Shown piece by piece: positions 10,133 to 37,617 of a DNA stretch of 64,000 bases. The notes under the pieces were generated by a model. That model ran no database searches and was not told where the DNA came from. It was given only the letters and a program-made list of their open reading frames with translations. The stretch is from a virus, in the IMG/VR virus record IMGVR_UViG_3300048577_000559; one strand, 5' to 3'. Position 1 is the stretch's first letter; each line of letters opens with the position of its first letter. Both the position numbers and the translations under genes were made by a program.

Positions 10133-10236
10133 GGGTGATCTCCGTCGAGCGAGTCAAAGGTCGCCCGGCCCGGTCAACACCGGGTCGGGCGGCCCCTCTA
10201 CCATCAACTGCCCTGCGGGCTTGCCGGAGATGCCTC

Positions 10237-10488: not shown

Positions 10489-10494
10489 ATCGTG

Positions 10495-11007: not shown

Positions 11008-11009
11008 TC

Positions 11010-11504: not shown

Positions 11505-11523
11505 GTAAACGGAGAAACCGAAC

Positions 11524-12270
11524 ATGGCACGCATCGAATTGCGAGACTGCGATGTCATTTTGCAGGACGGCCTCGCGGGCACGGCGGCGGTCAACGAATC
11601 CGTCACCCCGCCCGAAGCGACCGACACCGACTTTGACATCGACACGATTGTCCTGAACACGGCCGACACCGATAAGGTGCCCGTGGGGGCGCGTTTCAAG
11701 ATTGTGGGCGAGACGACCCCCGTGTACCACACCGTCACGGCCCGCACCCCGGCCGACGCCGGCCCGACGACCAACATCGAGTTCGCGCCGGCCCTCGGCG
11801 CGGGCACGTATGCGGACGGCGCGGTGGTGACGTTCTATCCCCAGAATCTCGAAATCAAGATCGGGGAAGGAAACATCACCTACACCGAGCACAACGAGTA
11901 CGAGTACCTCAAGGACCGGGGCGACTTGGACACGGTGAAGGAAGGCGACGAAGTGCCGATGGACGTGAAGCTGGAGGCCGTCTTCGAGCACATCACCCAG
12001 GGCACGAGCGAGCCGGTCAGCCCGATGGACGCCCTGAAGGGCATCGGCGGGGCGGACGAGTGGGTGAGCGCGTCGAGCGACCTGTGCGAGCCGTACTGCG
12101 TGGACGTGGTGGTTCTGCACACGCCGCCCTGTGGCACGGCCCAGCTTGAGCGCGTGACCTTCCCCGACTTCCGCTCGGAGCAACGGGAGATCAACTACAA
12201 GGAGTCCACGATCTCGATTACGGGCAAGTGCAAGGCCACGGAACCCATCGTCGCGCGTGAGACGGCGTAG
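11524..12270 (+). CDS. Putative major tail (tube) protein.
   Basis: 248-aa ORF followed by a rho-independent terminator, directly upstream of the chaperone/tape-measure genes. Confidence 0.4.
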   Translation: MARIELRDCDVILQDGLAGTAAVNESVTPPEATDTDFDIDTIVLNTADTDKVPVGARFKIVGETTPVYHTVTARTPADAGPTTNIEFAPALGAGTYADGAVVTFYPQNLEIKIGEGNITYTEHNEYEYLKDRGDLDTVKEGDEVPMDVKLEAVFEHITQGTSEPVSPMDALKGIGGADEWVSASSDLCEPYCVDVVVLHTPPCGTAQLERVTFPDFRSEQREINYKESTISITGKCKATEPIVARETA

Positions 12271-12308: not shown

Positions 12309-12335
12309 GGCCTCTTTCTCAAGAAGACCAGATAT

Positions 12336-12363
12336 GCGGTGCCGGCAGCGGTGCCGGCACCGC
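12336..12363. promoter_or_regulatory. Direct repeat plus a 16-bp perfect palindrome GCGGTGCCGGCACCGC upstream of the chaperone gene.
   Basis: gcggtgccggca repeated twice. The second copy forms the perfect palindrome 12348-12363. Confidence 0.3.
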
Positions 12364-12395
12364 AACTCTCTCATTCCTTTTAGCGAGGGAACAAC

Positions 12396-13632: not shown

Positions 13633-16600
13633 ATGGCTGACGAAACCATTGTCAATAAACTCGGTTTCAGCGTCGAGGATGCTCTCAAGCAGCTTCAGCG
13701 ATTGGACTCCGCGCTGCAATCCTCGGGCACGGCCTTCCAGACGTTCGGCGAGCGGATGAACGCTTGGAACAGCCAGGCGGAGGGCGCGCTGAACCGGATG
13801 AAGGACATGGCCTCGGCCGCCTCGCGGCTGGCCAATTCGTTGGCGAAGATGGGCAACGGGCCGGCAACGCCGGCTGCCCCGACCGCTGCGCCCACCTCGA
13901 AGTTCTGGCTGCCGCCCGGCGTGGCAGAGGAGGTCCAGAAGGCCAACCAGACGATGGATCAGCTTGGCAACACGGCGGCCGAGGCTGGAAATAAGATGCG
14001 GGAGGCGGGAGCAAAGGGCAAGAATGCCGGCTCGGATGCCGGCGGCGCGGCGAAAGAAGCCGCTGAGAAGACCAAGGCGTGGACCGTCACTTGGGAGACC
14101 CTGACGCGGGTGGTAATGACCCAGGCCATCGTCCGCGTCTTGAGCCAGATTCGGAATCTGCTCCGTGAATCGGTGGACGAGGCGCTGAAGTTCTCCACGA
14201 AAATCTCGGAAATCCAGACCATTGCCCCGAGGATCGACCAGAGCTTCCAGGGGTTGAGCAAGGAAGTCGCCGACATCTCGCGGCAGTTCAACTTCCCGCT
14301 GCCCGACGTGGCCGAGGCGGTGTATCAAACGCTGTCCAACCAGTTTACCTCGGCGCAGCAACGTGCGGACATTATGACGGCCTCCGCCAAGCTGGCTAAG
14401 GTCGGCGTCATGGACTTGAATGAGGCCGTGCTCCTGATTACGGGCACACTCAACGGCTACGGCATGGCATCCAACCAGGCCGAGACGGTGGCCGCCAAGT
14501 TCTTTAAGACCATCGAGTTGGGCCGCACCCGTGGTGCCGAGTTGACGCCGGTGATTGGCCGCCTCGTGCCGATTGCCAGCGAGTTGGGCGTCAACCTGGA
14601 TGAAGTCAATTCCTCGATGGTCGCCTTGACCATCGGTTCGATGCGCGTCCCCGAGGCGGCGACCAGCTTCCGGTCGGCGATGGCAGCCCTTATCAAGCCC
14701 TCCGAAGACTTGAAGAAGGAGTTGCGCGCCCTGGGCTACGAGACGGGCCAGCAGATGATTCATGCCCTGGGCCTCCAAGGGGCGTTCCTAGCCCTGCGGG
14801 AGAGCGCGAACGAAGACGTGGCGGCCACCGCCAAGATGTTCCGCAACATCCGCGCCTTGAACGCCGAATTGCGATTGACCGGCTCGGGCGCGGAACAAGC
14901 GGCCGAGGCCATGAAGAAAATGACCGATGGCACGCTCACGGACAGCTTCAACGAGGTCTTCAAGACGTTCACCTCCACCGACGCCCAGCAGTACATGGCG
15001 GAGTTGAACAAGTTCAAGGTCTCTTTGGCCACGGAGGTGGGACCGGAACTGGTCAAGTTCCTTAGCACCCTCTTGAAGACGGCGGGCGGGGCGGAAGGAT
15101 TGGCCGCCGCGCTAAAAGGCATTGCGATGACGGCAAGCCAGTTGGCCGAGCCGCTGGCGATTGCCGGCGGGGCGCTGGCGGCGTTCTCGCTCCGCGCCAA
15201 GCTGGCGGGATTCACCGGCCTCGGAGGCGTCCTTTTCAACAACGTCGTTGCGCCGCTGAGCATGGCGGTGTGGACTACCGAATTCCTCGATCAGCGCATG
15301 GCGTCGATGCTTGACAATGCCAACGCGAACTTCCGTGCGAAGGTCGAGGAGACGGTACTGGCGCAGAGGAAGGCCGCCCAAGAGCGGCTGGACGCCGAGA
15401 TGAAGGTCTACGACGAAGCCGGCCGCCGCCTGGAACAGTACACGGCAGAGGTCCGCAAGGCGTACAACGCCCAGGTGGACCAGGCGCGGAAGACCAATGA
15501 GCAGTTGGTTGTCTCGTCGCGGACCACGATGCAGGCGATGATCTCGGCCCGCGAAAAGGTCGTGCAGCAGTTCCGCGCGGCCGCCCAGGACGCCAACAAG
15601 GCGGCCGAAGACTCCGTGAAGCGTCAGGCGGACTCGCAAGCCAAGCTGGACGACCTGCTCTTCAAGCGACGACTCGAAGAGCGGCAGAAGTACGACAGCT
15701 ACTACAAGAAGCCCGAAGTCACGTCGGATATGTACGGCCGGCGTGCGCTCGAACTAGCGCAGCAAGCTGCGGGCCTCTTGGCCAAGGCCGAGACCCCGGA
15801 CCAGGAGCGGACGGCCCAGGCGATCTTCCAGCGGGCGACGGCCTACGCCCAGGAAGCCGAGCAGATCGCCAAGGGGACGGAGAACGAGTGGCTGCGGAAA
15901 GACGCCGCGAACACCGTGGAGTCGATTATTCGCAAGGAGATCGACGCGGAAAAGGAACTTCAGCGCAACAGCGATTCCCGCGCCTCGGCGGCGGCCCAAG
16001 CGGCGGCCAAAGAGCAAGAGCGCGTGGACCGGATGAAGGTCTTGATGAAGGGTATCCTCACGGACCTGGACCTGTTCGATAAGCGTGGTCCGGTGGACCC
16101 CAAGAAGACGGCCGCCATGTCGGAAGACTTGAAGCAGAAGATGGCTTCCTTCAAGAAGGAATGGATGGACGGCACGGCTGATCTCAGCCTGGACGAGATG
16201 CTGAAGTTCGACGCCCTCAGCCAACGGGTCAAGACGGCCTTGGAGGGTGGCGTCTCGGAGGCAGAGGTCCAGAAGCTCTTGGCTGCGCCGAATGCGATTG
16301 ACGACTTGCGCAGCCAGATCGAGGCGGGCCTGAAGCCGGTGGATGTCTCCGTCCTGCTGCCCGTCGCCTCCCCCGACCTTGCCAAGAGACTGTTGGCGGA
16401 AATGCCTTTGCCCGACAAGGAGGCGTACCTCGCGCAGCAGAACGCTGCCTTCCAGAAGCAGACGGAACTGGTCAAGAAGCTCACGACCGAGCAGATCGCG
16501 CTTACGGAGGCCACGACTCGGCAGAAGGCGGCCGTGGGTGCCCTGGGCGCGAACAACGCAATCTACCAGGAAGGCATGGAGGAGACTTCGACCTTCTTGA

Positions 16601-17445
16601 TGCAAGCGGCGGCCAAGGCCAAAGGCGCGATCCTCGGCGGCGGGGACATCCAGAAGGAGACGAAGGCCCTGGCGGAGTTGGTCGGGCAGTTCCGGCAGTT
16701 GTCCGAGACTGGCGGCAAAGGTTTTGGCCTGAAAGAGTTTGAGGAATTGCAGAAGAAGGCCACCGCCGCGATGGCCATGCCCACTGTGACGGGATGGGAC
16801 CAAACCTTCATCACGAACCAGATGGCCAACTTAAAGTTCCTGGCCGAGCAGACGGAGGCGATGAAGAGGTTGCAGACGCCGCAGGGTCAGACCCGCGACG
16901 TGGAGGCGGAGTTGCTGAAAGCTCGGCAAGAGGCCGACCGCCTCAAGGAATTGATCGACAAGTTGAAGCCCCAGGCGGCGACCGAGATGGGTGAAGGCGC
17001 GAAGGCGGCACAAACGTCACTAAGCGCAATCCCGAGCATGGCGGGCCTGGTCGGCGACATCCAATCGGCAGCCACGGCTATGTGGGACTTGGCTGCCGCC
17101 TCGTGGAGCGTGCAAGCCCCGCCATCGGCCCTGACCGCTGCCAAGGGCCGGATCGCGTGGAACTTCTTGTCCCTTGGCGGCCCGGCCCAGGGCACAGACG
17201 TGATTCCGGCGATGCTCTCGCCGGGCGAGGTGGTGATTAACGCCGCCTCGGCGCGGCGGTTCGCCGCACAACTGACCGCCATCAATGCCGGCGTGCAGCC
17301 GGTCTACCGCAGCGAAGGCGGCAGCGTCACCAACATCGGTGACATCAACGTGAACGTAACCGGCGGCGGATCGAGCCGCCAAACGGCTCGGGAAATCGCC
17401 GCCGAGATTCGACGCGAATTGCGGCGCGGCACGGCGACCCTGTAA
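13633..17445 (+). CDS. Tail tape measure protein.
   Basis: 1270-aa Ala/Gln/Glu/Lys-rich, largely alpha-helical protein in the canonical position. Confidence 0.75.
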   Translation: MADETIVNKLGFSVEDALKQLQRLDSALQSSGTAFQTFGERMNAWNSQAEGALNRMKDMASAASRLANSLAKMGNGPATPAAPTAAPTSKFWLPPGVAEEVQKANQTMDQLGNTAAEAGNKMREAGAKGKNAGSDAGGAAKEAAEKTKAWTVTWETLTRVVMTQAIVRVLSQIRNLLRESVDEALKFSTKISEIQTIAPRIDQSFQGLSKEVADISRQFNFPLPDVAEAVYQTLSNQFTSAQQRADIMTASAKLAKVGVMDLNEAVLLITGTLNGYGMASNQAETVAAKFFKTIELGRTRGAELTPVIGRLVPIASELGVNLDEVNSSMVALTIGSMRVPEAATSFRSAMAALIKPSEDLKKELRALGYETGQQMIHALGLQGAFLALRESANEDVAATAKMFRNIRALNAELRLTGSGAEQAAEAMKKMTDGTLTDSFNEVFKTFTSTDAQQYMAELNKFKVSLATEVGPELVKFLSTLLKTAGGAEGLAAALKGIAMTASQLAEPLAIAGGALAAFSLRAKLAGFTGLGGVLFNNVVAPLSMAVWTTEFLDQRMASMLDNANANFRAKVEETVLAQRKAAQERLDAEMKVYDEAGRRLEQYTAEVRKAYNAQVDQARKTNEQLVVSSRTTMQAMISAREKVVQQFRAAAQDANKAAEDSVKRQADSQAKLDDLLFKRRLEERQKYDSYYKKPEVTSDMYGRRALELAQQAAGLLAKAETPDQERTAQAIFQRATAYAQEAEQIAKGTENEWLRKDAANTVESIIRKEIDAEKELQRNSDSRASAAAQAAAKEQERVDRMKVLMKGILTDLDLFDKRGPVDPKKTAAMSEDLKQKMASFKKEWMDGTADLSLDEMLKFDALSQRVKTALEGGVSEAEVQKLLAAPNAIDDLRSQIEAGLKPVDVSVLLPVASPDLAKRLLAEMPLPDKEAYLAQQNAAFQKQTELVKKLTTEQIALTEATTRQKAAVGALGANNAIYQEGMEETSTFLMQAAAKAKGAILGGGDIQKETKALAELVGQFRQLSETGGKGFGLKEFEELQKKATAAMAMPTVTGWDQTFITNQMANLKFLAEQTEAMKRLQTPQGQTRDVEAELLKARQEADRLKELIDKLKPQAATEMGEGAKAAQTSLSAIPSMAGLVGDIQSAATAMWDLAAASWSVQAPPSALTAAKGRIAWNFLSLGGPAQGTDVIPAMLSPGEVVINAASARRFAAQLTAINAGVQPVYRSEGGSVTNIGDINVNVTGGGSSRQTAREIAAEIRRELRRGTATL

Positions 17446-18170: not shown

Positions 18171-19139
18171 ATGGCCTACGAACGATTCACAAACGGCGGC
18201 CTCTCTTCGCTGGACGCCGCCATCGACAACGATGATCTCGCCTTGACGGTGAAGTCGGCTGTCGGATTCCCCACCGGCGGCAACTTCCGCATCATCATCG
18301 ACAACGAGATCATGCTGGTCACGGACGTGCAAGGCAAGACCTTCACCGTCACGCGGGCGCAAGAGGGGACCAGCGCCGCCAGCCACGATGCCGACGCCGC
18401 TGTCTTTCATGTCCTGACCGCTGGTGCCTTGGCGCAGCGAGACATCGAGCAGTTCGCCAGCGGCGCGATCGCCAACCGCGATGCGGCTGGGCAGGCAGGA
18501 CGGCTCTATCTGCCGACCGAGGGCCTTGTCGGTCAAGACAACGGCATGGCCTGGGACATGATGCCTTACTGGCGCATGACGCCTCCAGCCAGCGGCGACT
18601 TCACCTGGATCAACCAGGGCAGTGCCACGGTAGCCGACACGAAGGGCATGATGGTCCTCTCGACCCCGAGTGTGGCGTCGGGCGAGAACATCCGGTGCCT
18701 CGTCAAGTCCGCGCCGGCGACTCCCTATGAGATTACCGTCGCCATGCTGGCCCAGAGTCCGGGCTACACCACGACGAATGTTTCGCAGTTCGGCATCTGC
18801 TGGCGCGAGAGCGGTTCGGGCAAGCTGCTCACCTACGGCTTTGGCACGCAGAACTATCCGCAGGGCTTCTTCTACACTCAATGGGCGAACCCCACGACAC
18901 CCACCAACCAGTTCGTCTACACCGCGCCGTGGAGTTGGCCGTTCTGGATTCGTTTCTCTGACGACGGCACGAACCGGATGGTGAAAATCTCGGCGGACGG
19001 GATTACGTTCCAGCCCGTCCAAGCTACGCAGGGCCGCACCGTGTATCTCACGGCCGATCAGGTCGGGGTGTTCGCCAATAGCTGGAAGAACACCCTCGCG
19101 GCGCGCGTCATTTCGTTCTTGCATTGGAGGGAAGCATAA
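18171..19139 (+). CDS. Tail fibre or receptor-binding-like protein, paralog 1.
   Basis: Shares a conserved N-terminal domain (GGNFRI.ID.EI..VT..QEGT..HD..A.V.HVLT.GAL, GRL.LPT.G) and the C-terminal motif FLHW with the next two genes. Confidence 0.5.
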   Translation: MAYERFTNGGLSSLDAAIDNDDLALTVKSAVGFPTGGNFRIIIDNEIMLVTDVQGKTFTVTRAQEGTSAASHDADAAVFHVLTAGALAQRDIEQFASGAIANRDAAGQAGRLYLPTEGLVGQDNGMAWDMMPYWRMTPPASGDFTWINQGSATVADTKGMMVLSTPSVASGENIRCLVKSAPATPYEITVAMLAQSPGYTTTNVSQFGICWRESGSGKLLTYGFGTQNYPQGFFYTQWANPTTPTNQFVYTAPWSWPFWIRFSDDGTNRMVKISADGITFQPVQATQGRTVYLTADQVGVFANSWKNTLAARVISFLHWREA

Positions 19140-20128
19140 TGGCGGAGCAATTCAAGAACCTCGCCAGCACCACGCTCAACGGAGCCATCAACGATACCGT
19201 TGAAACGATTACGGTGGTCAGTGCGATGGGCTTCACGGGCGGTAACTTCCGTATCCTGATCGACAGCGAGATTGTGAAGGTCACGGCCGTGAGCGGCCTA
19301 GACCTGACGGTCGTGCGAGGCCAGGAGGGGACCAATCCTACGGCCCACGACAACGCCGCCGCTGTTCGCCACGTCTTGACGGTCGGGGCACTGGACGCCC
19401 ACGACCAGGACGACTTGGCGGCCTACGACGCCTGCGCCAGCAAGCCGGCGGCCGGCGTGCCGGGGCGCATCTTCCTGCCGACCGATGGCATCTTCTTCGA
19501 GCGCGACAATGGCTCGATCTGGGAGAGGTTTGGCCCTTTGTGGCCCATGACTCCGCCGCAAGCCTCCGACTTCCCGACTTGGGTGAACCAGGGGACCGCG
19601 ACTATTGCGGACAACAAGGGGGCGGTCTGGCTCTACGCCCCTTATACCAGCAATACCCAAGTCCGTATGCGGGTGAAGGATTATCCCACCCCACCGTTCA
19701 CCGTAGAGGCGGCGTTCATTCCCTGTGTGTTTCCTAATACCGGCAGCGGAACGGGAGGCATCGGCATCCGGGACTCGTCCAGCGGTAAGCTCCAAGTTTA
19801 CGGGGTGACGAGTGCCTACATGGAGATTTGCGGCTACCGACTTGACAGTCCTACGGCGAGTTTCAACGGCATGACGGGCTGGCCAAATTCGGGTTCCCTT
19901 CACCTGCCCGAGTCGAACCTGATCTGGGTCAAGTACGAAGACGACAACACGAACCGCAAGATTTCGGTCTCCGTGGACGGCTATACCTGGACGCAGATGG
20001 TCAGCGTCGTCCGAACCGACCACCTGACTCCCAATCAGATCGGGATATGGACGAACGGCTATCCCGGCGGCGGTGCCAGCGGCTACGTGGACACGGGCGT
20101 CACCTTTCTTCACTGGAAGCAATACTAA
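19139..20128 (+). CDS. Tail fibre or receptor-binding-like protein, paralog 2.
   Basis: Paralogous to 18171-19139 and 20128-21117, with the same N-terminal domain and C-terminal HWKQY. Start at ATG 19139 after GGAGGGA. Confidence 0.5.
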   Translation: MAEQFKNLASTTLNGAINDTVETITVVSAMGFTGGNFRILIDSEIVKVTAVSGLDLTVVRGQEGTNPTAHDNAAAVRHVLTVGALDAHDQDDLAAYDACASKPAAGVPGRIFLPTDGIFFERDNGSIWERFGPLWPMTPPQASDFPTWVNQGTATIADNKGAVWLYAPYTSNTQVRMRVKDYPTPPFTVEAAFIPCVFPNTGSGTGGIGIRDSSSGKLQVYGVTSAYMEICGYRLDSPTASFNGMTGWPNSGSLHLPESNLIWVKYEDDNTNRKISVSVDGYTWTQMVSVVRTDHLTPNQIGIWTNGYPGGGASGYVDTGVTFLHWKQY

Positions 20129-21117
20129 TGGAAACCTTCGCCAATCAGGCCGTTACCACGCTGTCGGCCGCCATTACCAGCGTGACCGCCACGAGTTGCA
20201 CGGTCATTGATGCCACGGCGTTCCCGGACACCGGGAACTTTCGCATCAAGATCGACAGTGAAATCCTCATTGTCACTAGCGTTGCAGGCAATACCTTCAT
20301 CATCACGCGCGGGACCGAGGGCACTACGGCGGCCACGCACGCCAGCGGCGCGAGCGTCATTCACCTCTTGACCAAAGGCAGCCTGGACGCGCGGGTCGCC
20401 AACCGCTTCATCTCCGACATCTACGACAACAAGCCTGCGGCTGGCGTCAAAGGACGACTCTTCCTGCCCACGGACGGGCTGTTCCTGGAGTACGACGACG
20501 GGGCGGCTTGGCACAAGTACGGGCCGTACCGGCGGCTCAAAGCGCCACCCCAGACCGGCTGGTCGTGGGTCAACCAGGGCAACGCCACGGTGACGTACAC
20601 CGGCAGCGCGTTGGTGCTCGAAGACCCCGATCTTGATACCACCGCTCCGCAGATTCGTTTGCTCGTCCGGCCAGTAGGCGTGGTCAACGGGGTCACAGCG
20701 GCCTTTCTGTGGAATGGGCTAGCAAACGATGTCCCCTGCATGGGCGTCTGTGCCAGGCAGGTGGGCGGGGACGCATCCTATGACGGGCACTTCTGGACCT
20801 TCGGCACCCGGCCGTCAAGTGGCGCTGGCAATCAGATGGTTTTTCACGAGCGGTATTACACTTCTCCGACCGTGCTTCAATCGACCCCGACAGAGGATGG
20901 GAAAGCCTATTACTCGCAACGGCTCTTCTGGGTTCGGTACGAATGGACCGGGTACAACAAGCGTTTCTATCATTCGGCCGATGGCGTGAACTGGATCAGG
21001 GTGGACGACGAGGGAATGACTTCTTATGCCGGACCCAACCAGTTGGGCATCTTCATCGACCCGACGAACAATGTCCAGAAGATTTCCATGACCTTGGTTC
21101 ACTGGGAAGAGAGCTAA
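20128..21117 (+). CDS. Tail fibre or receptor-binding-like protein, paralog 3.
   Basis: Same N-terminal domain (GNFRIKIDSEILIVTSV..TRGTEGTT..H) and C-terminal LVHWEES. Confidence 0.5.
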   Translation: METFANQAVTTLSAAITSVTATSCTVIDATAFPDTGNFRIKIDSEILIVTSVAGNTFIITRGTEGTTAATHASGASVIHLLTKGSLDARVANRFISDIYDNKPAAGVKGRLFLPTDGLFLEYDDGAAWHKYGPYRRLKAPPQTGWSWVNQGNATVTYTGSALVLEDPDLDTTAPQIRLLVRPVGVVNGVTAAFLWNGLANDVPCMGVCARQVGGDASYDGHFWTFGTRPSSGAGNQMVFHERYYTSPTVLQSTPTEDGKAYYSQRLFWVRYEWTGYNKRFYHSADGVNWIRVDDEGMTSYAGPNQLGIFIDPTNNVQKISMTLVHWEES

Positions 21118-23647: not shown

Positions 23648-24046
23648 ATGTTCACGCTTCAAGCCCCTTATCCGCTCTTGCAGACCACGACGCTCTTGCC
23701 CAATCCGCAATTCAGCGACCAGGAGAGCTTGACGGCGACCGTGACCCGCAAGACGGCGATGGACGGCACGCGCTACACCTACGTCAAGCGCAAGGGCGAC
23801 CGGCGGAAGCTGAAGTGGTCCTTCCGCCTCATGCGGAACAAGGGCCTCGAATTGCGGGCCTTTCTCTTCGCCTACTTCGCCTCGCCGGTGCGCGTCGTTG
23901 ACCACAACGGGCGGATGTGGGTCGGCAATTTCACGAACAATCCGTTCGAGTTTGACACTGCCCAGAAGGCCGGGCCGGCGATTGCGCCCATGCCGCGCGG
24001 CGAGGCCCAGATGATCGAATTGGAATTTGAGGGAGTCGAGCAGTGA
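23648..24046 (+). CDS. Small tail protein (hypothetical).
   Basis: 133-aa ORF between the repeat protein and the large tail protein. Confidence 0.35.
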   Translation: MFTLQAPYPLLQTTTLLPNPQFSDQESLTATVTRKTAMDGTRYTYVKRKGDRRKLKWSFRLMRNKGLELRAFLFAYFASPVRVVDHNGRMWVGNFTNNPFEFDTAQKAGPAIAPMPRGEAQMIELEFEGVEQ

Positions 24047-26946
24047 GGAACATCTCCGCAGCCGGATTGGCGAAACTGGCGACCCGCTACGGCACCGAAC
24101 CCATCACCATCATCGAGGTGGATTGGGTTGACGGGAGCACCGCGCGATACGCCGACCGCACCATAGGAACGATTCCCGGCCGGATCGTGGAGGTTGGCGA
24201 CCTGGATAACGTCGTCAACGTGAGCAACAACAGCGGCTCGCAGGAATTGGCCGTCACGCTGGACGATACGGACGGCACCATCAAGGCCATCTTCGACGCC
24301 CATGACATTCACAAACGGACGGCGCGGGTGTATCAGTATTTCACCGGCCTGGCGCTGTCCGACAAGTTCCTGCTCTTCAGCGGCAAGGTCAGTTCGCCCA
24401 TTACTTGGAGCGAGCGGGACCGCACGGTCAAGTTCTCGATCCTCTCGCAACTTGAAGACAAGGAGATCGGCTTCAGCGCGGAAGAGGGCCAGTTTCCTTA
24501 TCTACCGGCGGACATGGTGGGCAAGGCGTGGCCGATGATCTTCGGCAAGGTCGTCAATTGCCCAACGCTCCAGGTCAACAAGGCGGTCACGGGCACGACG
24601 CTCACCAGCGCGGGCATCCTCAGCGGCATGGACCTTTGGGCGTCGATGTCGGACGGGGCCGACGACTCGCAGCATACCATGAGCCTGCTGCAAATGCTCA
24701 TTCAGATCAACCACCTTCAGAAAGTGAAGGAGTGCTGGGCACCGCATTGGCACCCGCCGGTGGACGCTGCCAAGGCGGCCGAGCTTCAGAAGCAGATCGA
24801 CTCGCTCAACGCGCAAATCCGTGAGGCGGTGGGGCGGCGGGACAAGCAGCGGGCCTGCGCCCTGGCCCGCCGGCAGCAGCAGATCGCCGAGGCCAATGCC
24901 CAAGGAGAGGGCGAGAATCCCATCCGCATCCTGGGCGGCGAGGATTTTCCCCAGGGGCGGACCCTGACGCTCAACATCAATGGCGGACTGTTCACCGGGC
25001 ATTTCGAGGGCGAGTTGTTCCACGTCCAGAGCCGCCAACATCCGGCGGACGACGCCACGGCCGCTGATGCGTATGCCGAGAAGACCGAGGAGCCGGCCAT
25101 CTGCCTGGAACCGACGCAGATCAGCTACTATCGCTATGAGGACGAGGTCCCTAACGGCTGTGGCGATGGGTTCCCCAAGGGAAACAAGATCATCGACCAG
25201 GGGGCGGTGATTACCAACACCAATGCCACCGTGAGTCAGATGGACACCGAGCCGGTGGCCCAGCACTTCTGGGTCGATCCCGGCGCGTCGGTGACGATTG
25301 CCAGCGACGAGCCGATTACCTACATCGCCTCCATCGTGCCCGGCACGGTCTTGGCGGTGAAAGCCTACAAGCAACTCACTGGCGAGCGGCGGCTGGTGGA
25401 TGTGCCGACCGACTTGTATACGGTCACGAGCCAGACCTACGGGTCCGTAACGGCCATTGAGATCGTCGTCAACAAACCCTTGAGCACCATCACCGATCAG
25501 GGCTGGAGCGATGATCTCTACGTGACGTTTCAGTCGAGCGTCGGCCCGGACACCGTGAACATCCTCAAGTACCTGATAACCAATTACACGGACCTGACTT
25601 GGGATGCCACGTCGTTCAACCACGTCCAGGAGAAACTCCAGCCATTTCCGGCCAACTTTCCGATCCTGGAGCGGAAAAACACGATTCAGGCGTTGGAGGA
25701 GATCGCCTTCCAGGCCCGCTGCGCCATTTGGCTTAACAATGGGGTGTTCTACTTGAAGTATCTCCCCGAGGAGCCGACACCGGCTGGCACGATTACGGCA
25801 AGCGACATCGACGCCGAAAAGGGCATCGAGGTGGAACTTACCAGCACGGAAGACATTGTGACCAAGATGAAGGTCAACTGGCGGCTGAGTTGGGCCGACG
25901 TTTCCGATCAGCCGAAGGACAAGGCCGAGAAGACGATCCTCTTGCGGCACAACGTCGCCAAGTACGGCACCCAGGAGCAGCAGTACGACTGGTACATCTA
26001 CAACCAGCCGGACACCGTGTACAAGTGCGCGACGTTCTGGCTAATCCGCAAGTCGAACACCTGGAAGCGGATCAGTTTCAAGACCTTCTTGAACAAGCTG
26101 AACCTGGAGACCTTCGACGCCGTGACGCTGGATTTCGACCAGCCTTACGTGGCCAACGGCCCAGTGTTGGCGATTGTCGAGAAGGCCAATTACAACTCGG
26201 CGGAGAATTGCGTGGACTTCGAGTGCCTGGTGCCGGTGGCGGCGGGCACGATGGAGAAATACCACTTCTTCTGGCCGGCGGCGTTGCCGCAGACGGACAC
26301 CTGGCCGCCTGCCAACGAGATTGCGGCTGGTTATGCCGGTGGCAACGGGATCGGCACGGGAGCCACCGGCAACCTGCCGGTGGGCGACACCACGACGATC
26401 CCGGACGGGAGCGTGATTTTCGTCGGCGGCCCCAATGTCGTCTTTCGGGCGCACAGCGATTGGGGCGACTCCACGCCTACGGACGTGGGCTTCTCGGCCC
26501 AGCCCGTCGTGGATACGGCGACCTACATCAACCTCTCGCCCGGTTCTCGCCCGCGCTTGAATTTGCGGACGTATCCTCGGCGGAGCCTGCCGGCCATCAC
26601 GCCGGCAGCCACCTCGTCGAGCCAGATTACGGTCGATCTGCACAAGACCAAGATTCTCGACACTTCAGGCGATGAAACCAAGTTTGCCTACCTGTCGTCC
26701 ATTCTCCACGGCATCACCGAGGATGGCGACTTGACGATTGATCGCGGGGCACTGGTGGCGGACGAGGAGCATGAGGATGGGCAACCGTTGTCCGACGTGT
26801 TGAAGAACGGCGACGAGTATCTGGCGATCCGCACGGACGTTTCCATCTGGGACCAGGATTACGGAGAGCACGAATTCGACTTCGCCTTCGACTTTATGAG
26901 CGAGAAGTTTGGAGCAGGGACCGCGTTCCTGCAAAGCGAGGATTAA
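24043..26946 (+). CDS. Large tail protein (tip or host-specificity-like).
   Basis: 967-aa ORF with a GTG start overlapping the upstream stop. Size and position resemble phage tail tip or J-like proteins. Confidence 0.45.
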   Translation: MRNISAAGLAKLATRYGTEPITIIEVDWVDGSTARYADRTIGTIPGRIVEVGDLDNVVNVSNNSGSQELAVTLDDTDGTIKAIFDAHDIHKRTARVYQYFTGLALSDKFLLFSGKVSSPITWSERDRTVKFSILSQLEDKEIGFSAEEGQFPYLPADMVGKAWPMIFGKVVNCPTLQVNKAVTGTTLTSAGILSGMDLWASMSDGADDSQHTMSLLQMLIQINHLQKVKECWAPHWHPPVDAAKAAELQKQIDSLNAQIREAVGRRDKQRACALARRQQQIAEANAQGEGENPIRILGGEDFPQGRTLTLNINGGLFTGHFEGELFHVQSRQHPADDATAADAYAEKTEEPAICLEPTQISYYRYEDEVPNGCGDGFPKGNKIIDQGAVITNTNATVSQMDTEPVAQHFWVDPGASVTIASDEPITYIASIVPGTVLAVKAYKQLTGERRLVDVPTDLYTVTSQTYGSVTAIEIVVNKPLSTITDQGWSDDLYVTFQSSVGPDTVNILKYLITNYTDLTWDATSFNHVQEKLQPFPANFPILERKNTIQALEEIAFQARCAIWLNNGVFYLKYLPEEPTPAGTITASDIDAEKGIEVELTSTEDIVTKMKVNWRLSWADVSDQPKDKAEKTILLRHNVAKYGTQEQQYDWYIYNQPDTVYKCATFWLIRKSNTWKRISFKTFLNKLNLETFDAVTLDFDQPYVANGPVLAIVEKANYNSAENCVDFECLVPVAAGTMEKYHFFWPAALPQTDTWPPANEIAAGYAGGNGIGTGATGNLPVGDTTTIPDGSVIFVGGPNVVFRAHSDWGDSTPTDVGFSAQPVVDTATYINLSPGSRPRLNLRTYPRRSLPAITPAATSSSQITVDLHKTKILDTSGDETKFAYLSSILHGITEDGDLTIDRGALVADEEHEDGQPLSDVLKNGDEYLAIRTDVSIWDQDYGEHEFDFAFDFMSEKFGAGTAFLQSED

Positions 26947-26949
26947 GTC

Positions 26950-27768
26950 ATGGCCGCACTGTATCCCCTGACGCTCGACGCCTGGAACAGTCTGCTCGGG
27001 CGGATCAACAACCTAGCCTCGTGGCCTCCCGAAGGCTGCGATCCCATCGCTCAACTACCGCTTGTCACTGCGCCGCACAAGTGGACGGTCCAGGACATCG
27101 CGGCGGCGCAGGACAAGCTCCGGGAGATTTGTTCCGACAACACCTTCACCAGCCCTTCGCCTTCGGACAAATGGCGGAAGCTCTACATCGACGAGCTTGA
27201 CGAGGCCATCGACAACGGCTGGTGCAACTGCGAACCGCCGATACCGTGCTGCATACCTTATGGAGAGGGGACGGTCTGGATCGAAGGCCCCGGCGGCGGC
27301 TACTGGGTGACGATACCCTACTGGCAAGTGATCGAGCAGTACCTTTACGGAAACATCAGCTATGGGGCGGCTGAAGCGGCTCTTCCCGAAGGGGTCATGG
27401 CGCATCTGGTGCAGTGCTACGCTAGCGGCCAGGGCTACATTGCGCACAGCTTCCATCACGGGCATTGGGTGAACTGCGTCTACCAAGACTACTGGGTGGA
27501 GGGTGGTAAACGGGGTGAGGAGCATTGGAGTACGTGCCAGATCGACCCGGACGAGATTACTTACTTGGGACGGGTGCCCGCCCTCACTTCAAGCTACGAG
27601 AGCAGCACAATCGTTGGACCGACCAACTCTATTGATCCGTTCTGCGGGGCTTATCAGTACGACTATATCGAGCATCGGTGGTATCAGTCCTGCCAGATCG
27701 GGTACTTCGAGGTAAATGCGTATTGGTATTACTTCTCTTATTGGTCGCTGTTCCAGTGTCCAGCGTGA
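26950..27768 (+). CDS. Cys/Trp/Tyr-rich hypothetical protein.
   Basis: 272 aa with many C, W and Y (WCNCEPPIPCCIPYGEG, YWYYFSYWSLFQCPA). Last gene of the structural block. Confidence 0.4.
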   Translation: MAALYPLTLDAWNSLLGRINNLASWPPEGCDPIAQLPLVTAPHKWTVQDIAAAQDKLREICSDNTFTSPSPSDKWRKLYIDELDEAIDNGWCNCEPPIPCCIPYGEGTVWIEGPGGGYWVTIPYWQVIEQYLYGNISYGAAEAALPEGVMAHLVQCYASGQGYIAHSFHHGHWVNCVYQDYWVEGGKRGEEHWSTCQIDPDEITYLGRVPALTSSYESSTIVGPTNSIDPFCGAYQYDYIEHRWYQSCQIGYFEVNAYWYYFSYWSLFQCPA

Positions 27769-27807
27769 GCTTCCATCGCGGCAAGTAGACAAAGGCAAGT
27801 GCGGTTG

Positions 27808-27845
27808 GACAAGTGCCCAGGTGGATAACCACCTGGGCACTTGTC
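27808..27845 (+). terminator. Perfect 17-bp stem-loop (GACAAGTGCCCAGGTGG-ataa-CCACCTGGGCACTTGTC), likely a terminator or regulatory hairpin.
   Basis: Exact inverted repeat read directly from the sequence, followed by TCATTTCTT. Confidence 0.5.
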
Positions 27846-27866
27846 ATTTCTTGAGAGGAGCATCTT

Positions 27867-28442
27867 ATGGAAAGCGCGTTTGCTTGGCTGAATCAGTTGT
27901 TCCAGGCCATCTATCAACTGTTCCCTCGCATCCTGATCGTGCGGGCCACGCACGGCGGCGTTGCTTGGGTACGGGGCAAGCACGTCAAGTTGCTCGTGCC
28001 GGGGCTGCATATCTACTGGCCCTTGACGACCGACGTGGAGGTCGTTGTGACCGCTCGGCAGACGCTCGCCATCCCGGACCAAGTGATGGCCACGAAGGAC
28101 GGCAAGAAGGTCGTGGTCAAGACCTTGGTGGTCTACAAGATTCCCGATCCCGTGCGGGCCATCGGCAAGCTCAATTGGGACGTGGACACCACGATCAACG
28201 ACCTGACGCAATCCGCCGTGGTCCGCGTTATTGCCACGCACACCTACGACGAGATCATGGCGGGGATCAGGGATGAGAGCCTGACGAAGACCTTGACCAC
28301 AGAGACCCGCCGCGAGTTGCGGCAGTTCGGCGTCCACGTCACGCGCTCGAAGCTGGTGGACTTCGCCGACTGCAAGGTCTTCAAGCTGCTCACGTCCCAG
28401 GCGGACAGGGCGGGGATGGCCACGCACCAGTTCTACCAGTAG
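27867..28442 (+). CDS. SPFH/band-7 (stomatin/prohibitin-like) domain protein.
   Basis: Match to the SPFH core: GGVAWVRGKHVKLLVPGLHIYWPL..DVEVVVTARQTLAIPDQVMATKDGKKVVVKTLVVYKIPDP. RBS GAGAGGAG. Confidence 0.6.
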   Translation: MESAFAWLNQLFQAIYQLFPRILIVRATHGGVAWVRGKHVKLLVPGLHIYWPLTTDVEVVVTARQTLAIPDQVMATKDGKKVVVKTLVVYKIPDPVRAIGKLNWDVDTTINDLTQSAVVRVIATHTYDEIMAGIRDESLTKTLTTETRRELRQFGVHVTRSKLVDFADCKVFKLLTSQADRAGMATHQFYQ

Positions 28443-28841
28443 TCAGGACCGGCGCACCGGGCAGTTCTGGCATTGCTCCAGCGCGGCCTCGCCACTGAAC
28501 GGCTCGGCGTCGGGATTACCGCAGAGTCCGGCAACGCCCAGCACGCCGTCAATCACCTGGACCCGGAGCATCCGCAGCAGGCAGTGCGGCCAGGCGGGAT
28601 AGAGCCGCGAGCCATCTTGCCGATAGCCGGACAAGGCTGGTGGAGGTCCGCTGAATTCCAGCGACCCGTCTGGGTGGACCGTGGGACGGCCGTGGACCAG
28701 TTCCACGTCGGGGATGGCCTGCTCGACGAGGCGATAGAAGCTCGCCAGCGGGCCGCCGGAGTAGGTCAGATAGTTGCAGCCGCCGGCCGCCACGGGGCGA
28801 GGCTGGTCTTCGGGGCAATTGCAGGGCGTGGATTCTACCAT
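28443..28841 (-). CDS. Cys-containing hypothetical protein.
   Basis: Start chosen at MVESTPCNCPEDQ (ATG at 28841) to avoid a long overlap with the upstream gene. 133 aa. Confidence 0.35.
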   Translation of the reverse strand: MVESTPCNCPEDQPRPVAAGGCNYLTYSGGPLASFYRLVEQAIPDVELVHGRPTVHPDGSLEFSGPPPALSGYRQDGSRLYPAWPHCLLRMLRVQVIDGVLGVAGLCGNPDAEPFSGEAALEQCQNCPVRRS

Positions 28842-29317
28842 AGTTCTCGCGGGCAGTGTTCCGTGGCCATCTTGATCTTGTTCAGCACGGCGTAGCCGTT
28901 CTCGGCGACGCGGCAGCCGCATCCTCGGCAGATTTGCCGCTCGCCGTCGAACCATTTGCAGGGCTTGCACTGCTGGTGGAATATCCGCTCGACTTCCTTG
29001 TCCGGGCGCACGGGCTGCCCGGCGGCTGTCCATCGGGCAAGGGCCTCGGCATAGGAGTACGCGCGGCGCACCAGCCCCGGCGGCGCGGGCGACTCCGATG
29101 ATGGTGGCGCGGGTGGCGGGGTCGGGGGTAGCGGTGGCGGCGACGATTCCGGGGCAGCTATTTCGGTCGGTTCAAGCCCAAGGCAACGGCGACAGTCAAC
29201 GGGTCGAACCGGCCGCTGAAAGTAGCCCTTTGAGGGGTCGTTGCACGTCGGGTGCCTCTCCGTGCCGGTGAGGCGCTTCGGGCATGGCGGGTTTTCGCGC
29301 TCTTCATCCGTTGACAT
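28835..29317 (-). CDS. Hypothetical protein with a proline-rich linker and a C-terminal Cys-rich (zinc-binding-like) domain.
   Basis: Start MSTDEERENPPCPK with RBS GAGGAAG. C-terminus CKPCKWFDGERQICRGCGCR. Confidence 0.4.
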   Translation of the reverse strand: MSTDEERENPPCPKRLTGTERHPTCNDPSKGYFQRPVRPVDCRRCLGLEPTEIAAPESSPPPLPPTPPPAPPSSESPAPPGLVRRAYSYAEALARWTAAGQPVRPDKEVERIFHQQCKPCKWFDGERQICRGCGCRVAENGYAVLNKIKMATEHCPRELW

Positions 29318-29327
29318 GACGACTTCC

Positions 29328-29948
29328 TCAGAACATCCGCAGCATGGCGTGGTAGACTTCGGCCTCGGCAATGCAGTCGGCCAGGGCGTCATGCGGATTG
29401 GTATTCGTGATGCCCAGCTTCTTGCACATCGCCCCCAGGCCGACGAAGGGGAACGGGACCGGCTCGCCCGCAAAAGCGGCCTTGTCGTTGAGCGAGATTG
29501 CGTAGAGCATCCCGTCGCGGGCGTGGCTGTGAAACAAGAGGTCCATCTCCTCCACGCCCAGCCACGCCTTGAGGAATGACGACTCGAAGGCCCAGTTGTG
29601 GGCCAGCGGCACGAGGCACTTCTTGAAGGGCAGCTTCAAGTTCAAGAACCAGTCATGGAGCCAATCGGCCACCTGCTCGGCCTCGGGGGCGTGGAGCAAG
29701 AGTTCCGTCATGGGAATCTTGTGCTTGTGCTTCGCGCCGAGCGACTCCCGCTCCGGGTGTTTTGGCTTGACGCGGGTGTAGAACGGCCGCACGCTGGCAA
29801 GGGGCCTGAAGTCCGAGTCCAGCGGCACCACGGCGATCTGGATGATTTCGTGATAGCCGGGCCGCGTGCCGGTGGTCTCCAGGTCTACAGCCGCCATGAG
29901 ACAGCCGTTGAGGTGGACCAGGCCGGGATAGACGATGGAATCAGCCAC
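29328..29948 (-). CDS. DnaQ-like 3'-5' exonuclease (DEDDh).
   Basis: Motifs VDLETTG (Exo I), HNWAFE (Exo II) and HDALADC (Exo III). GTG start preceded by GGGGAGGAAG. Confidence 0.7.
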   Translation of the reverse strand: MADSIVYPGLVHLNGCLMAAVDLETTGTRPGYHEIIQIAVVPLDSDFRPLASVRPFYTRVKPKHPERESLGAKHKHKIPMTELLLHAPEAEQVADWLHDWFLNLKLPFKKCLVPLAHNWAFESSFLKAWLGVEEMDLLFHSHARDGMLYAISLNDKAAFAGEPVPFPFVGLGAMCKKLGITNTNPHDALADCIAEAEVYHAMLRMF

Positions 29949-30378
29949 GGCGGGTCTTCCTCCCCTTCTTGGCAGGCTTGCGGGGTGACTGGCGGGGCGA
30001 CTTGCGGACGACGGGCTGGTAGCACGGCATGTCGTTCAATTCCGCCGGGAGCAGCCCGCGCTCGATCATCTCCTCGTAATGGATCAAGGCCATCGAGTTG
30101 AACATGATCGCGGCAAGATGATCCTCGTCTCGCTTGCCCTGCTGGTACTTCATTACGTGCCGCTTGAGCGAGGCCACGCAACGCGAGAACGGCATCCCCT
30201 TTTCCCAGTTCCGCTCGGCGTACTTGGCCGCGCCCATGCGGAGCCAGTGGCCCTGCCGCTCTTCGGCGAACGGGGAGATCAGGTCGGGCCGGGGCTTGTC
30301 GTCCGCCGTGTCGCGGATCGCCATACCTTTGCCGAAGGATTGCCGTTTGCCGCTGTCGGTCATGCCGTACTTGCTCAT
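29941..30378 (-). CDS. Phage protein with a putative dATP/dGTP-diphosphohydrolase-like domain.
   Basis: RMGAAKYAERNWEKG..SLKRHVMKY..EDHLAAIMFNSMALIHYEE. Recalled as a phage nucleotide-pyrophosphohydrolase-associated domain, with low certainty. RBS GGAGAAG. Confidence 0.35.
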   Translation of the reverse strand: MSKYGMTDSGKRQSFGKGMAIRDTADDKPRPDLISPFAEERQGHWLRMGAAKYAERNWEKGMPFSRCVASLKRHVMKYQQGKRDEDHLAAIMFNSMALIHYEEMIERGLLPAELNDMPCYQPVVRKSPRQSPRKPAKKGRKTRRG

Positions 30379-35922: not shown

Positions 35923-37617
35923 ATGCAGCCCTTCTTCGAGCAGAACAACCTGAGCCTGTATTGCGGCAACTGCCTCGACGTGCTCGCCACGCTCCCCGAG
36001 GCGTCCGTGGATTACGTCGTGACAGACCCACCCTACCTTCTCAACTTTATGGAGAAGGATTGGGACGCTGCTGGCGGCGACATCCCAACAAGCGAGTTGG
36101 TATTTCGGTCCTGGTTCGCCGGTTTGGTTGCCGGGGAGGCGTGCTTCCGAATCCACCGTGAAAAGGACGGAACCTACTACGCTTGTGAGTTCAACATCAA
36201 GATGCGTGCCGATGAAGGCCCGCTGCTGCGGGCGTTAGCTCGGCGCATCGAAGCAGGGAATGTGCAGGACATTCCGGCTGAGTCGCGCGCTGTGAATAGT
36301 GGACCAGCCGTGAAGTGGGTTGTCCACTCCCGCGAGGATTGCTGGAAGATCGCCCGCTTGTTGGACGGCACGCCACTCTATGCGAAGAAGCAACGTGAAT
36401 ACGATCTGTGGCGCAGAGCCCTGAACGTCTGGACGACAACGCCGCGTGGCAACCGTTGGTGTGGTCCGCGCGACAATTCGGCAATGGAATCCTTGTGGGA
36501 GGAGATGAAGACGCTGCGGCCGTTCGATCAGGACTTGGCTGATGGCGACTTCGATCCGCTGCGGCAACCGGATTACCTCTTCCACAATCGTTGGGCGAAA
36601 GCCTGCCTGCGCGTTGTGAAACCCGGCGGCCTCCTGCTGGCGTTTGGCGGTACACGCACCTATCACCGGCTGACTTGCGCAATCGAGGACGCCGGGTGGG
36701 AGATTCGGGACGCGCTGATGTGGCTCTATGGGCAGGGGATGCCCAAGTGCGGCGACATCGGCAAACTGATCGACAAGTCGAAAGGCGCGAAGCGCGAAAT
36801 CATCGGCGACAAGTTGGATCGTCCCGGCTACCACTTGCACGAAGGCAAGGGAAACGGGTGCTACGGCGGCGGCAACGGACTTCATGCCCCTGGCACGGAT
36901 GCTCGGCTTCGCGCCGCGCAGATAACGGCACCGGCGACTCCCGAGGGCGCGAAGTGGACCGGCTGGGCGATGGCGTTGAAGCCGGCCTGGGAGCCAATCG
37001 TCCTGGCGATGAAGCCGCTGGACGGCACGATTGCCCACAACGCCCTGACCTGGGGCGTGGCCGGCATGAACATTCAGGCTTCCCGCATCGGCAACGAGAG
37101 CACGATACGCACTCGCGGGGACAGCTTGACGGACGCCGGCTGGGCCAGCACGAACCGCTCGCCTCTGGGCGGGTCGGAATGCGGGCGATGGCCGGCGAAC
37201 TTACTGCTGGACGAGGAAGCGGCTGTTCAACTGGACACTCAAGCGGGCACGCTTACGAGCGGCACCAACTGCGTCCGCACGAAATCCGGCGACGGCTACC
37301 ACGGCCGTCTCGGTAAGGCGGGCGATGTGCAGATCAGCTACGGCGACTCCGGCGGAGCGAGCCGGTTTTTCTACTGTGCTAAAGCGACACGCACGGAGCG
37401 CGGGCCGGGCAACGACCATCCGACCGTTAAGCCCCTGGCCCTCATGGAGTACCTGTTGACGCTGCTCTCGACCCCGGATGGCGGCGTGATTCTGGACCCC
37501 TTCGCCGGCAGCGGCACCACGCTCTTGGCCGCCAAAAGCCTTGGCCGCCGTTGCATCGGCGTCGAGTTGACCGCACACAACTGCGAGATCGCCCGAGGGA
37601 GATTGCATGTCGCTTGA
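35923..37617 (+). CDS. DNA methyltransferase (N6A/N4C, beta class) with an embedded LAGLIDADG-like domain.
   Basis: Motif IV DPPY near the N-terminus, RVVKPGG downstream, and motif I DPFAGSGTT at the C-terminus. An insertion of about 180 aa contains WFAGLVAGEACF...GPLLRALARRIEAGNV...WKIARLLDGTPLYAKKQREYDLWRRAL, matching the LAGLIDADG homing-endonuclease pattern. Confidence 0.65.
   Translation: MQPFFEQNNLSLYCGNCLDVLATLPEASVDYVVTDPPYLLNFMEKDWDAAGGDIPTSELVFRSWFAGLVAGEACFRIHREKDGTYYACEFNIKMRADEGPLLRALARRIEAGNVQDIPAESRAVNSGPAVKWVVHSREDCWKIARLLDGTPLYAKKQREYDLWRRALNVWTTTPRGNRWCGPRDNSAMESLWEEMKTLRPFDQDLADGDFDPLRQPDYLFHNRWAKACLRVVKPGGLLLAFGGTRTYHRLTCAIEDAGWEIRDALMWLYGQGMPKCGDIGKLIDKSKGAKREIIGDKLDRPGYHLHEGKGNGCYGGGNGLHAPGTDARLRAAQITAPATPEGAKWTGWAMALKPAWEPIVLAMKPLDGTIAHNALTWGVAGMNIQASRIGNESTIRTRGDSLTDAGWASTNRSPLGGSECGRWPANLLLDEEAAVQLDTQAGTLTSGTNCVRTKSGDGYHGRLGKAGDVQISYGDSGGASRFFYCAKATRTERGPGNDHPTVKPLALMEYLLTLLSTPDGGVILDPFAGSGTTLLAAKSLGRRCIGVELTAHNCEIARGRLHVA

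Follow-up and report, generated by a model that had tools for sequence, protein, structure and literature searches.

In the 64,000-nucleotide stretch of viral DNA analyzed here (IMG/VR record IMGVR_UViG_3300048577_000559; the window in what follows), a perfect inverted repeat stands directly ahead of a small plus-strand gene (27867 to 28442) that encodes a 191-residue SPFH/Band-7 protein, which we call mini-SPFH. The window is a siphovirus-type genome with a plus-strand late operon that runs from terminase through the tail genes. Does the hairpin control the small gene, or does it belong to the genes in front of it? And what might an SPFH protein do for the phage at this site? A preliminary description of the locus had offered two roles for the hairpin, terminator or operator, and three for the protein, lysis timing, superinfection exclusion and membrane remodeling, the last three being guesses. 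Our overall reading, which we hold with no more than even confidence, is that mini-SPFH is an accessory, truncated SPFH gene located behind a leaky late-operon hairpin and that its product would be a peripheral membrane protein acting on SPFH proteins or membranes of the host.

On the side of the hairpin, the 17-bp repeat reported earlier was reproduced exactly. The arms (27808 to 27824 and 27829 to 27845) are complementary at 17 of 17 nucleotides around the loop ATAA, 11 of the 17 pairs are G-C, and no longer perfect short-range inverted repeat occurs in the window. The predicted RNA fold of positions 27790 to 27875 had an energy of -44.4 kcal/mol compared to -22.0 ± 2.9 kcal/mol for shuffled sequences (z = -7.65), and none of 200 shuffles equaled it. 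Directly 3' of the stem lies a short T-rich tail, ATTTCTT (27846 to 27852), of a TTTCT type that is kept in relatives. The tail is abutted by the Shine-Dalgarno sequence of the SPFH gene, GAGAGGAG (27853 to 27860), and the ATG at 27867 follows the stem after only 21 nucleotides. The hairpin thus has the GC-rich stem-loop of an intrinsic terminator followed by a U-rich tract, albeit a weak one, and a terminator scan returned it as the only strong terminator-like site between 20 and 36 kb. An Rfam search of 26.5 to 29.5 kb (E ≤ 1) yielded a single sub-threshold match to an unrelated family.

Is the structure conserved as a structure? Of 40 SPFH-bearing relatives, about 30 have a stem-loop located 19 to 26 nucleotides ahead of the start codon. 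When 25 near relatives were aligned, with slid partner columns as the control, 92% of the stem cells were paired compared to 35 to 43% in the slid columns, and 7 of the 17 pairs had changed on both sides. Stem cells that departed from Watson-Crick pairing were G·U in 19 cases and A·C in 6 (16 and 3, respectively, in the upper stem). This bias points to an RNA helix in the plus-strand transcript and would be unexpected for a symmetric DNA operator or for an RNA of the minus strand. The loop and the spacing varied among relatives, with no conservation of the loop, and six more distant relatives (L018, L021, L024, L026, L028, and L030; L numbers designate related loci) carried unrelated stem sequences of the same shape with clearer T tracts.

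The hairpin was also retained in genomes that lack the gene. L045 and L046, without the SPFH ORF (open reading frame), keep the conserved motif 5' of the hairpin (described below), the hairpin itself, the T-rich tail and an orphan Shine-Dalgarno sequence, after which the sequence leads directly into the converging gene. The SPFH-less loci L059 and L062 keep the hairpin behind a small upstream gene, and at this junction L072 carries a textbook terminator made up of an A tract, a stem and a T tract. Because SPFH-less relatives retain it, the hairpin marks the end of the late operon and is not part of the SPFH gene. Its structure is conserved over its sequence, on the transcribed strand and at an operon end, and the terminator proposed in the preliminary description is the role that the scan, the covariation, the G·U bias and the SPFH-less loci all favor. 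The same observations bear on the operator, that is, a DNA operator or recombination site at which a dimeric protein would gate SPFH expression. Such a site would account for the perfect dyad symmetry, for the conservation of the core GTGCCCAGG among near relatives and for the adjoining direct repeats of CAAGTGC. It would not lead one to expect strand-biased wobbles, compensatory double changes, a variable loop and spacing, unrelated stems with T tracts in distant relatives, a motif that does not recur in the window or a hairpin that persists where the gene is absent. We regard an operator as extremely unlikely and set aside that part of the earlier proposal. A repeated regulatory site was likewise rejected, as the arm motif GCCCAGGTGG is not specifically repeated elsewhere in the window.

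Two further strong, GC-rich tetraloop hairpins were observed within the late operon, one of 16 bp (10159 to 10194) directly after the major capsid gene and one of 13 bp (12335 to 12364) after a gene (11524 to 12270) that is probably the major tail protein gene. They look like the usual punctuation behind highly expressed structural genes. Structural genes continue beyond both, so hairpins of this type must be leaky, and in this phage they are probably attenuators or mRNA-end stabilizers rather than absolute stops. Late-operon terminators and intercistronic hairpins are familiar from other phages, T7 Tφ after gene 10 being an example. The likeness lies in a stem-loop that is rich in G and C, carries a U-rich tail, stands at or in the late operon and has genes beyond it, an arrangement that implies partial read-through. 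The hairpin ahead of mini-SPFH differs in its unusually long perfect 17-bp stem, its weak U tract and the extra conserved motif on its 5' side. Our best reading, from sequence and predicted termination, is that it serves as a leaky intrinsic terminator of the late operon or as an mRNA 3'-end stabilizer; it is an ordinary terminator-type element. The locus offers a caution here: a striking palindrome beside an interesting gene belonged to the operon and not to the gene.

We then asked how the gene is distributed. Sampling through SPFH itself made the gene look universal; resampling of the lineage through the neighboring gene g146 revealed this as ascertainment bias, and the idea of a core gene was rejected. 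Among the 71 loci obtained through g146, SPFH was present in 32 (always at this site), absent with both flanks available in 24 and uninformative in 15. With 32 present and 24 absent, about 57% of the lineage relatives sampled through g146 carry the gene. The absences were confirmed by a six-frame search with a profile hidden Markov model, in which every positive control was recovered. In the near-identical genomes L045 and L046, a clean indel has left only the SPFH ORF missing. Absences were scattered among close and distant relatives, which suggests repeated loss or gain. Where the gene is present, the ratio of nonsynonymous to synonymous substitution rates (0.07 to 0.27) indicates purifying selection, and its GC content at third codon positions (GC3), 0.89, is like that of the major structural genes. 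As judged from these sequences, the SPFH gene is accessory but maintained.

The protein was assigned to the SPFH family by several means. Pfam Band_7 (PF01145) matched residues 24 to 166 with E = 2.9e-19 and 70.2 bits (cutoff, 23.6); this segment (nucleotides 27936 to 28364) comprises SPFH1 and SPFH2 in the layout given by Pfam and an AlphaFold2 model. The model, built with 36 homologues, had a predicted local distance difference test score (pLDDT) of 78 overall and above 88 across residues 71 to 170. It consists of an N-terminal helix, the SPFH1 strands, the SPFH2 alpha/beta unit and a low-confidence C-terminal helix of 10 residues, with no coiled coil, and it ends about 25 residues past SPFH2. 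Foldseek matched it to stomatin, HflK, prohibitin and erlin with a probability of 1.0. The Band-7 identity first proposed from the translation alone was therefore borne out by profile search, by fold and by the family-profile matches described below. The expectation of a membrane-association segment held in part. No transmembrane segment was predicted (the maximum Kyte-Doolittle value in a 19-residue window was 1.03); what was found is an amphipathic N-terminal helix (residues 4 to 18, nucleotides 27876 to 27920), the most amphipathic stretch of the protein.

Mini-SPFH is one of many. At least 209 proteins make up its close family, and nearly all have 186 to 193 residues. An exhaustive profile search returned 198 clusters when the cutoff was E ≤ 1e-30 and 908 when it was relaxed to E ≤ 1e-10. 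The best 150 clusters were almost all of 170 to 195 residues and aligned from residue 1. Members that are 31 to 45% identical share the N-terminal helix with invariant W7 and P20, share a PGxHxYWP motif and end shortly past SPFH2. The conserved helix, of 16 to 18 residues, is amphipathic across the family (hydrophobic moment, 0.34 to 0.70). Distant members belong to phages of 31 to 64% GC and were found in several settings: after a g967-like tail gene in L112, between polymerase/exonuclease genes and a converging module in L113 and L115, and between a "virion structural protein" and a 1,516-residue protein in L119. A tblastn search against INPHARED gave no relatives among isolated phages. L113 and L115 also carry a secreted or membrane-anchored protease-like gene (phrog_9683; minus strand, 11018 to 11617 and 10937 to 11578, respectively) on the opposite strand from the SPFH gene and about 2.5 to 3 kb away, which is too distant and too sparsely represented to call a partner.

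How does this short form compare with known SPFH proteins? The family profile matched stomatin best (E = 1.3e-16), then QmcA (1.7e-15) and then HflK. Profile positions 5 to 165 aligned to stomatin residues 31 to 191, a stretch that opens with the second membrane-hairpin arm and closes with SPFH2; the alignment stopped where the coiled coil starts. The stomatin-type proteins (human stomatin, Escherichia coli QmcA and Pyrococcus PH1511) have the SPFH1 and SPFH2 fold in common with mini-SPFH, whose N-terminal hydrophobic/amphipathic helix aligns with the second hairpin arm right before a conserved beta-strand motif. However, stomatin-type proteins have about 250 to 310 residues, whereas mini-SPFH ends after 191 at the SPFH2/coiled-coil boundary and has no CC1/CC2 coiled-coil segments, C-terminal cap, transmembrane segment, full hairpin or nearby NfeD gene. 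The traits of canonical SPFH cages were looked for across the family as well. Neither mini-SPFH nor its family has the C-terminal CC1/CC2 and cap; as to an N-terminal transmembrane helix or intramembrane hairpin, mini-SPFH has no segment of transmembrane grade, and its conserved amphipathic helix aligns to one stomatin arm; and no operon partner of the NfeD or protease type was seen among the neighboring genes g272, g196m, and g212m.

HflK and HflC are modulators of FtsH and the classical phage-relevant SPFH proteins, by way of lambda CII stability. Mini-SPFH resembles them in its SPFH domain, relatives carry the automatic Joint Genome Institute name "HflC," and HflK was the best NCBIfam match. 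HflK/HflC identity was nonetheless rejected, with scores far under the equivalog cutoffs (45.5 versus 159.4 bits for HflK, TIGR01933, and 29.9 versus 134.4 bits for HflC, TIGR01932). Mini-SPFH also lacks their transmembrane anchor and their coiled-coil wall.

The statement in the preliminary description that SPFH proteins are unusual in phages was too strong. SPFH domains in phages are not new and have been annotated since 2006, when SPFH/Band-7 proteins were listed for the T4-like phages 44RR, RB43, and Aeh1 (PMC1524935). Stenotrophomonas phage DLP5 has an SPFH protein that was called a moron (PMC5834331), another is annotated in the Schitoviridae phage GIB1 (PMC13239085), and BFVD holds many viral SPFH entries, including those of Streptomyces phage StarPlatinum and Rhizobium phage Pasto. 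Like mini-SPFH, the known phage and giant-virus proteins are virus-encoded accessory proteins with an SPFH domain, but they mostly have 260 to 340 residues with longer C-terminal regions, and the mini-SPFH family is a distinct short form. The closest structural match of viral origin was a 173-residue "HflK" from an uncultured phage. Literature searches on "band-7-like membrane protein" and on SPFH with "anti-phage" found nothing functional. What we consider moderately new is the large family of truncated short forms, its place as optional cargo at a fixed module junction and the natural isogenic pairs with and without the gene.

Can a gene behind a terminator-type hairpin be expressed without a promoter of its own? 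We found no sigma-70-like promoter in the 98-nucleotide spacer from 27769 to 27866, in a scan whose consensus does not cover planctomycete and phage promoters. In five relatives (L016, L022, L034, L035, and L112), the SPFH gene abuts or overlaps an upstream gene on the same strand with no spacer, which implies co-transcription. On the basis of the 21-nucleotide gap, the missing promoter-like site and the abutting genes in relatives, we infer that co-transcription by read-through is favored. On the downstream side, the stop codons of SPFH (TAG) and of the converging g196m (read as TCA on the plus strand) adjoin each other at 28440 to 28445, and no terminator lies between the two genes. Minus-strand transcripts would consequently run antisense through the SPFH gene up to the hairpin.

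These findings can be combined into a tentative mechanism. The late operon would end at a strong hairpin with a short U-rich tail, where it converges with the minus-strand replication module, and the accessory truncated SPFH gene would occupy the little space left between this hairpin and the genes of that module. Since 21 nucleotides leave no room for its own promoter, the protein would probably be made late, from transcripts that pass the leaky hairpin, and at a level below that of the tail proteins. Its N-terminal amphipathic helix, which would take the place of the membrane-hairpin arm of stomatin and of the transmembrane anchor of HflK and QmcA, may then serve as a peripheral attachment to the cytoplasmic membrane. 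Mini-SPFH alone would not form a canonical cage, because the coiled-coil segments that close SPFH cages are missing. Most plausibly, it acts as a small oligomer, or it joins or perturbs the protease-scaffold assemblies of host SPFH proteins (stomatin/QmcA type or HflKC type) or local membrane order. The outcome would be a conditional fitness benefit and not an essential virion or lysis function. Our best guess is thus a late-expressed peripheral membrane protein acting on the host membrane or on host SPFH-protease assemblies.

Several observations weigh against this reading. The U tract of the hairpin is weak, with 5 T's in the 8 nucleotides of the tail ATTTCTTG, and the conserved motif GGCAAGTGCGG on its 5' side could be regulatory. 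An unrecognized promoter may take the place of read-through, and the sigma-70 scan may not fit the host. The N-terminal helix was modeled with a pLDDT of about 64, and its membrane binding is a prediction. No link to FtsH, NfeD, or a host SPFH protein was found, and the neighbors g272, g196m, and g212m had no Pfam, NCBIfam, or PADLOC match to NfeD or a protease. Distant family members occur in other module contexts, so late timing may not be general. Finally, some relatives lie on contigs of 0.7 to 1.07 Mb from metagenome-assembled genomes (MAGs), which makes expression from a prophage possible.

This last point leads to a different account, in which mini-SPFH is a moron or lysogenic-conversion gene with a promoter of its own, concealed in conserved sequence that lies 5' of the hairpin or overlaps it, and in which the protein acts on the membrane when expressed from a prophage, for example by blocking DNA entry of superinfecting phages. 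Morons of lambdoid and HK97-like phages are similarly optional genes at a fixed inter-module site, present in some close relatives and absent from others, and mini-SPFH is variably present at a fixed site downstream of an operon terminator. The surrounding region is variable, and relatives carry host-type genes, an IS110-like transposase and a second, incomplete copy of SPFH there; the motif 5' of the hairpin is conserved and unexplained; relatives are found on planctomycete MAG contigs of 0.7 to 1.07 Mb; and the DLP5 protein has been given this very name (PMC5834331). However, the SPFH gene is not sporadic but widespread and old in its lineage, and it has a codon usage that fits the resident genes. 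Neither a promoter (with only the sigma-70 consensus scanned) nor a terminator of its own was detected, and the gap between the stem and the ATG is only 21 nucleotides. Moreover, the 5' motif accompanies the hairpin even where SPFH is absent and so is not gene specific, the five relatives named above leave no space between the gene and the late gene ahead of it, no integrase or repressor was found among about 45 ORFs scanned in the window, and PADLOC gave no match. Taken together, we think a moron possible though rather unlikely. With regard to PADLOC, SPFH and its three neighbors had no match in PADLOC-DB at E ≤ 0.01, and identity as a defense system was rejected.

A role in lysis timing, with mini-SPFH scaffolding or restraining a holin or another lysis effector, would suit a gene in the usual post-tail place of the siphovirus lysis cassette that is probably expressed late and encodes a predicted membrane-directed helix, all the more as no endolysin or holin was recognized elsewhere in the window scans. 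Yet the gene is cleanly absent from the near-identical L045 and L046 and from about 40% of the lineage, no holin-like or endolysin gene was seen next to it, and distant members lie beside DNA polymerase and exonuclease genes. Dispensability in close relatives argues against a core lysis role, and we consider this explanation improbable. Still less credit is due to a protein of virion assembly or structure encoded by the last gene of the structural operon, for which dispensability in close relatives, the position behind the operon hairpin and the members at replication-module boundaries are unfavorable and which we rate as very improbable, although the gene shares strand, operon and GC3 with the tail or major structural genes and the L119 member lies between a "virion structural protein" and the 1,516-residue protein. 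SPFH folds are membrane scaffolds, and we know of none from tailed-phage virions. Of the roles considered, operator, core lysis and virion fit the data least well.

A more specific version of action on host assemblies is conceivable. The mini-SPFH proteins of 170 to 195 residues could represent a phage class of capless SPFH subunits that insert as decoy or poison into host cages of the stomatin/QmcA or HflKC type and so retune host membrane proteases (FtsH, NfeD) late in infection. Such proteins would have kept the SPFH domains and the half-hairpin anchor and lost the cage-closing coiled coil, and the cages would be opened or disabled. We think this quite unlikely; if true, the phage would thereby have a counterpart of lambda CIII that targets the Hfl pathway. 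More generally, phage SPFH genes have appeared in genome papers for twenty years, and the present locus offers natural isogenic pairs (L045 and L046) as well as a compact family of hundreds of 50%-identity clusters without the parts for SPFH cages. Should these proteins prove to act on the SPFH-protease scaffolds of the host, they would make simple probes of cage assembly and would represent a new phage route to membrane proteostasis.

What of the conserved sequence that precedes the hairpin? The linear motif GGCAAGTGCG (27794 to 27803, plus strand) lies directly 5' of the hairpin and is nearly invariant in the 25-sequence alignment. As GGCAAGTGCGG (27794 to 27807), it occupies the same place in L001 to L039, L045, L046, L058, and L062, often in tandem as GGCAAGTGCGGCAAGTGCG, and CAAGTGC is repeated in the 5' arm of the hairpin itself. 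Loci without SPFH still have the motif, and L058 has kept it although the hairpin is gone. Neither GGCAAGTGCG nor CAAGTGC is enriched elsewhere in the window. The motif could be a processing site, a regulator site or a recombination boundary.

Just upstream (27769 to 27788, plus strand) lies what looks like the remnant 3' end of a small gene, gX (MAKKWIQGAIKHPGALT...SFHRGK*), in which GCTTCCATCGCGGCAAGTAG matches the gX ends of L002, L058, and L062. Many relatives, such as L002 (5716 to 5910), L062, and L094, have an intact gX of about 60 to 85 residues that is flanked by the tail genes and the hairpin. The gene has probably been deleted from the window genome, leaving positions 27769 to 27788 behind, as far as the sequence can tell.

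The SPFH slot is a variable region, in which relatives carry gX, an IS110-like transposase or host-type genes, and the part that follows SPFH is a hotspot for cargo, as seen in L002 and L009. In L002 (6803 to 8710), a 2.1-kb insertion holds a host-type gene of the prepilin/DUF1559 kind, followed by a partial second SPFH copy of another lineage; this second copy is a recombination scar. In L009, an IS110-like transposase gene (9604 to 10821) lies downstream of SPFH.

The wider gene order places mini-SPFH at the junction of two modules. On the plus strand, the order is terminase, portal, capsid, tape measure (13633 to 17445), three tandem paralogous tail-fiber-like genes (18171 to 19139, 19124 to 20128, and 20047 to 21117; phrog_19068 and tail-fiber PHROGs), the large unassigned genes g834, g146, g967, and g272, the hairpin and the SPFH gene. 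The locus has its conserved upstream anchor in g967 (24043 to 26946, plus strand), a large conserved late gene and, by position, a probable tail hub or central fiber, which is syntenic in nearly all relatives at 31 to 99% identity. It is followed by g272 (26950 to 27768, plus strand), a variable late gene, last before the hairpin in this genome and present, absent or relocated among relatives. Pfam and PHROG searches gave no match for g967, and Pfam, PHROG, NCBIfam, and PADLOC searches gave none for g272. The earlier wording that mini-SPFH follows the tail genes is correct as to the tape-measure and tail-fiber-like genes, and g967 and g272 are structural by synteny only. The converging minus-strand module begins with two small unassigned genes, g196m (28443 to 29033), which is conserved in relatives, and g212m, and continues with an RNase_T exonuclease, a MazZ-like gene and a primase/helicase. 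The remaining genes of the window encode DNA polymerase A, a helicase, a ligase, exonucleases, nucleotide enzymes, ParB and several methylases.

The Cys-rich g212m (28835 to 29473, minus strand) is two genes away from SPFH and on the opposite strand. In distant relatives, g212m lies on the same strand as SPFH and overlaps it, upstream in L034 (5465 to 6001) and L035 (5759 to 5989) and possibly downstream in L112 (8495 to 8857). A functional link between g212m and SPFH is possible on this arrangement.

The loci related to the window are IMG/VR contigs and four MAG contigs named Planctomycetaceae, Pirellulales or Planctomycetales, and on the basis of these names the host is probably a planctomycete. 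Two of the relatives, L037 (CAWBLA010000006.1, 1.07 Mb) and L040 (CAWJKP010000005.1, 0.70 Mb), are located no more than about 30 kb from an end of their planctomycete MAG contigs, and their position on such long contigs suggests integrated prophages. Yet the window itself has a full replication module and ParB, and no integrase, repressor, holin, or endolysin was recognized in Pfam and PHROG scans of about 45 of its ORFs.

Two other groups of genes in the window deserve mention. The MazZ-like gene (29941 to 30378, minus strand) adjoins the RNase_T exonuclease gene and matches PF18909, the N-terminal domain of a dATP/dGTP diphosphohydrolase. MazZ is familiar from phages with a 2-aminoadenine "Z genome"; the ORFs scanned in the window included no PurZ-like gene. 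The other group consists of methylases. An N6/N4 DNA methylase (35923 to 37617, plus strand) matched Pfam in two stretches and contains a LAGLIDADG endonuclease domain at residues 66 to 166, which may be an intein or a homing-endonuclease insertion. Further methylases are encoded at 54169 to 54696 (MT-A70) and at 58674 to 59426.

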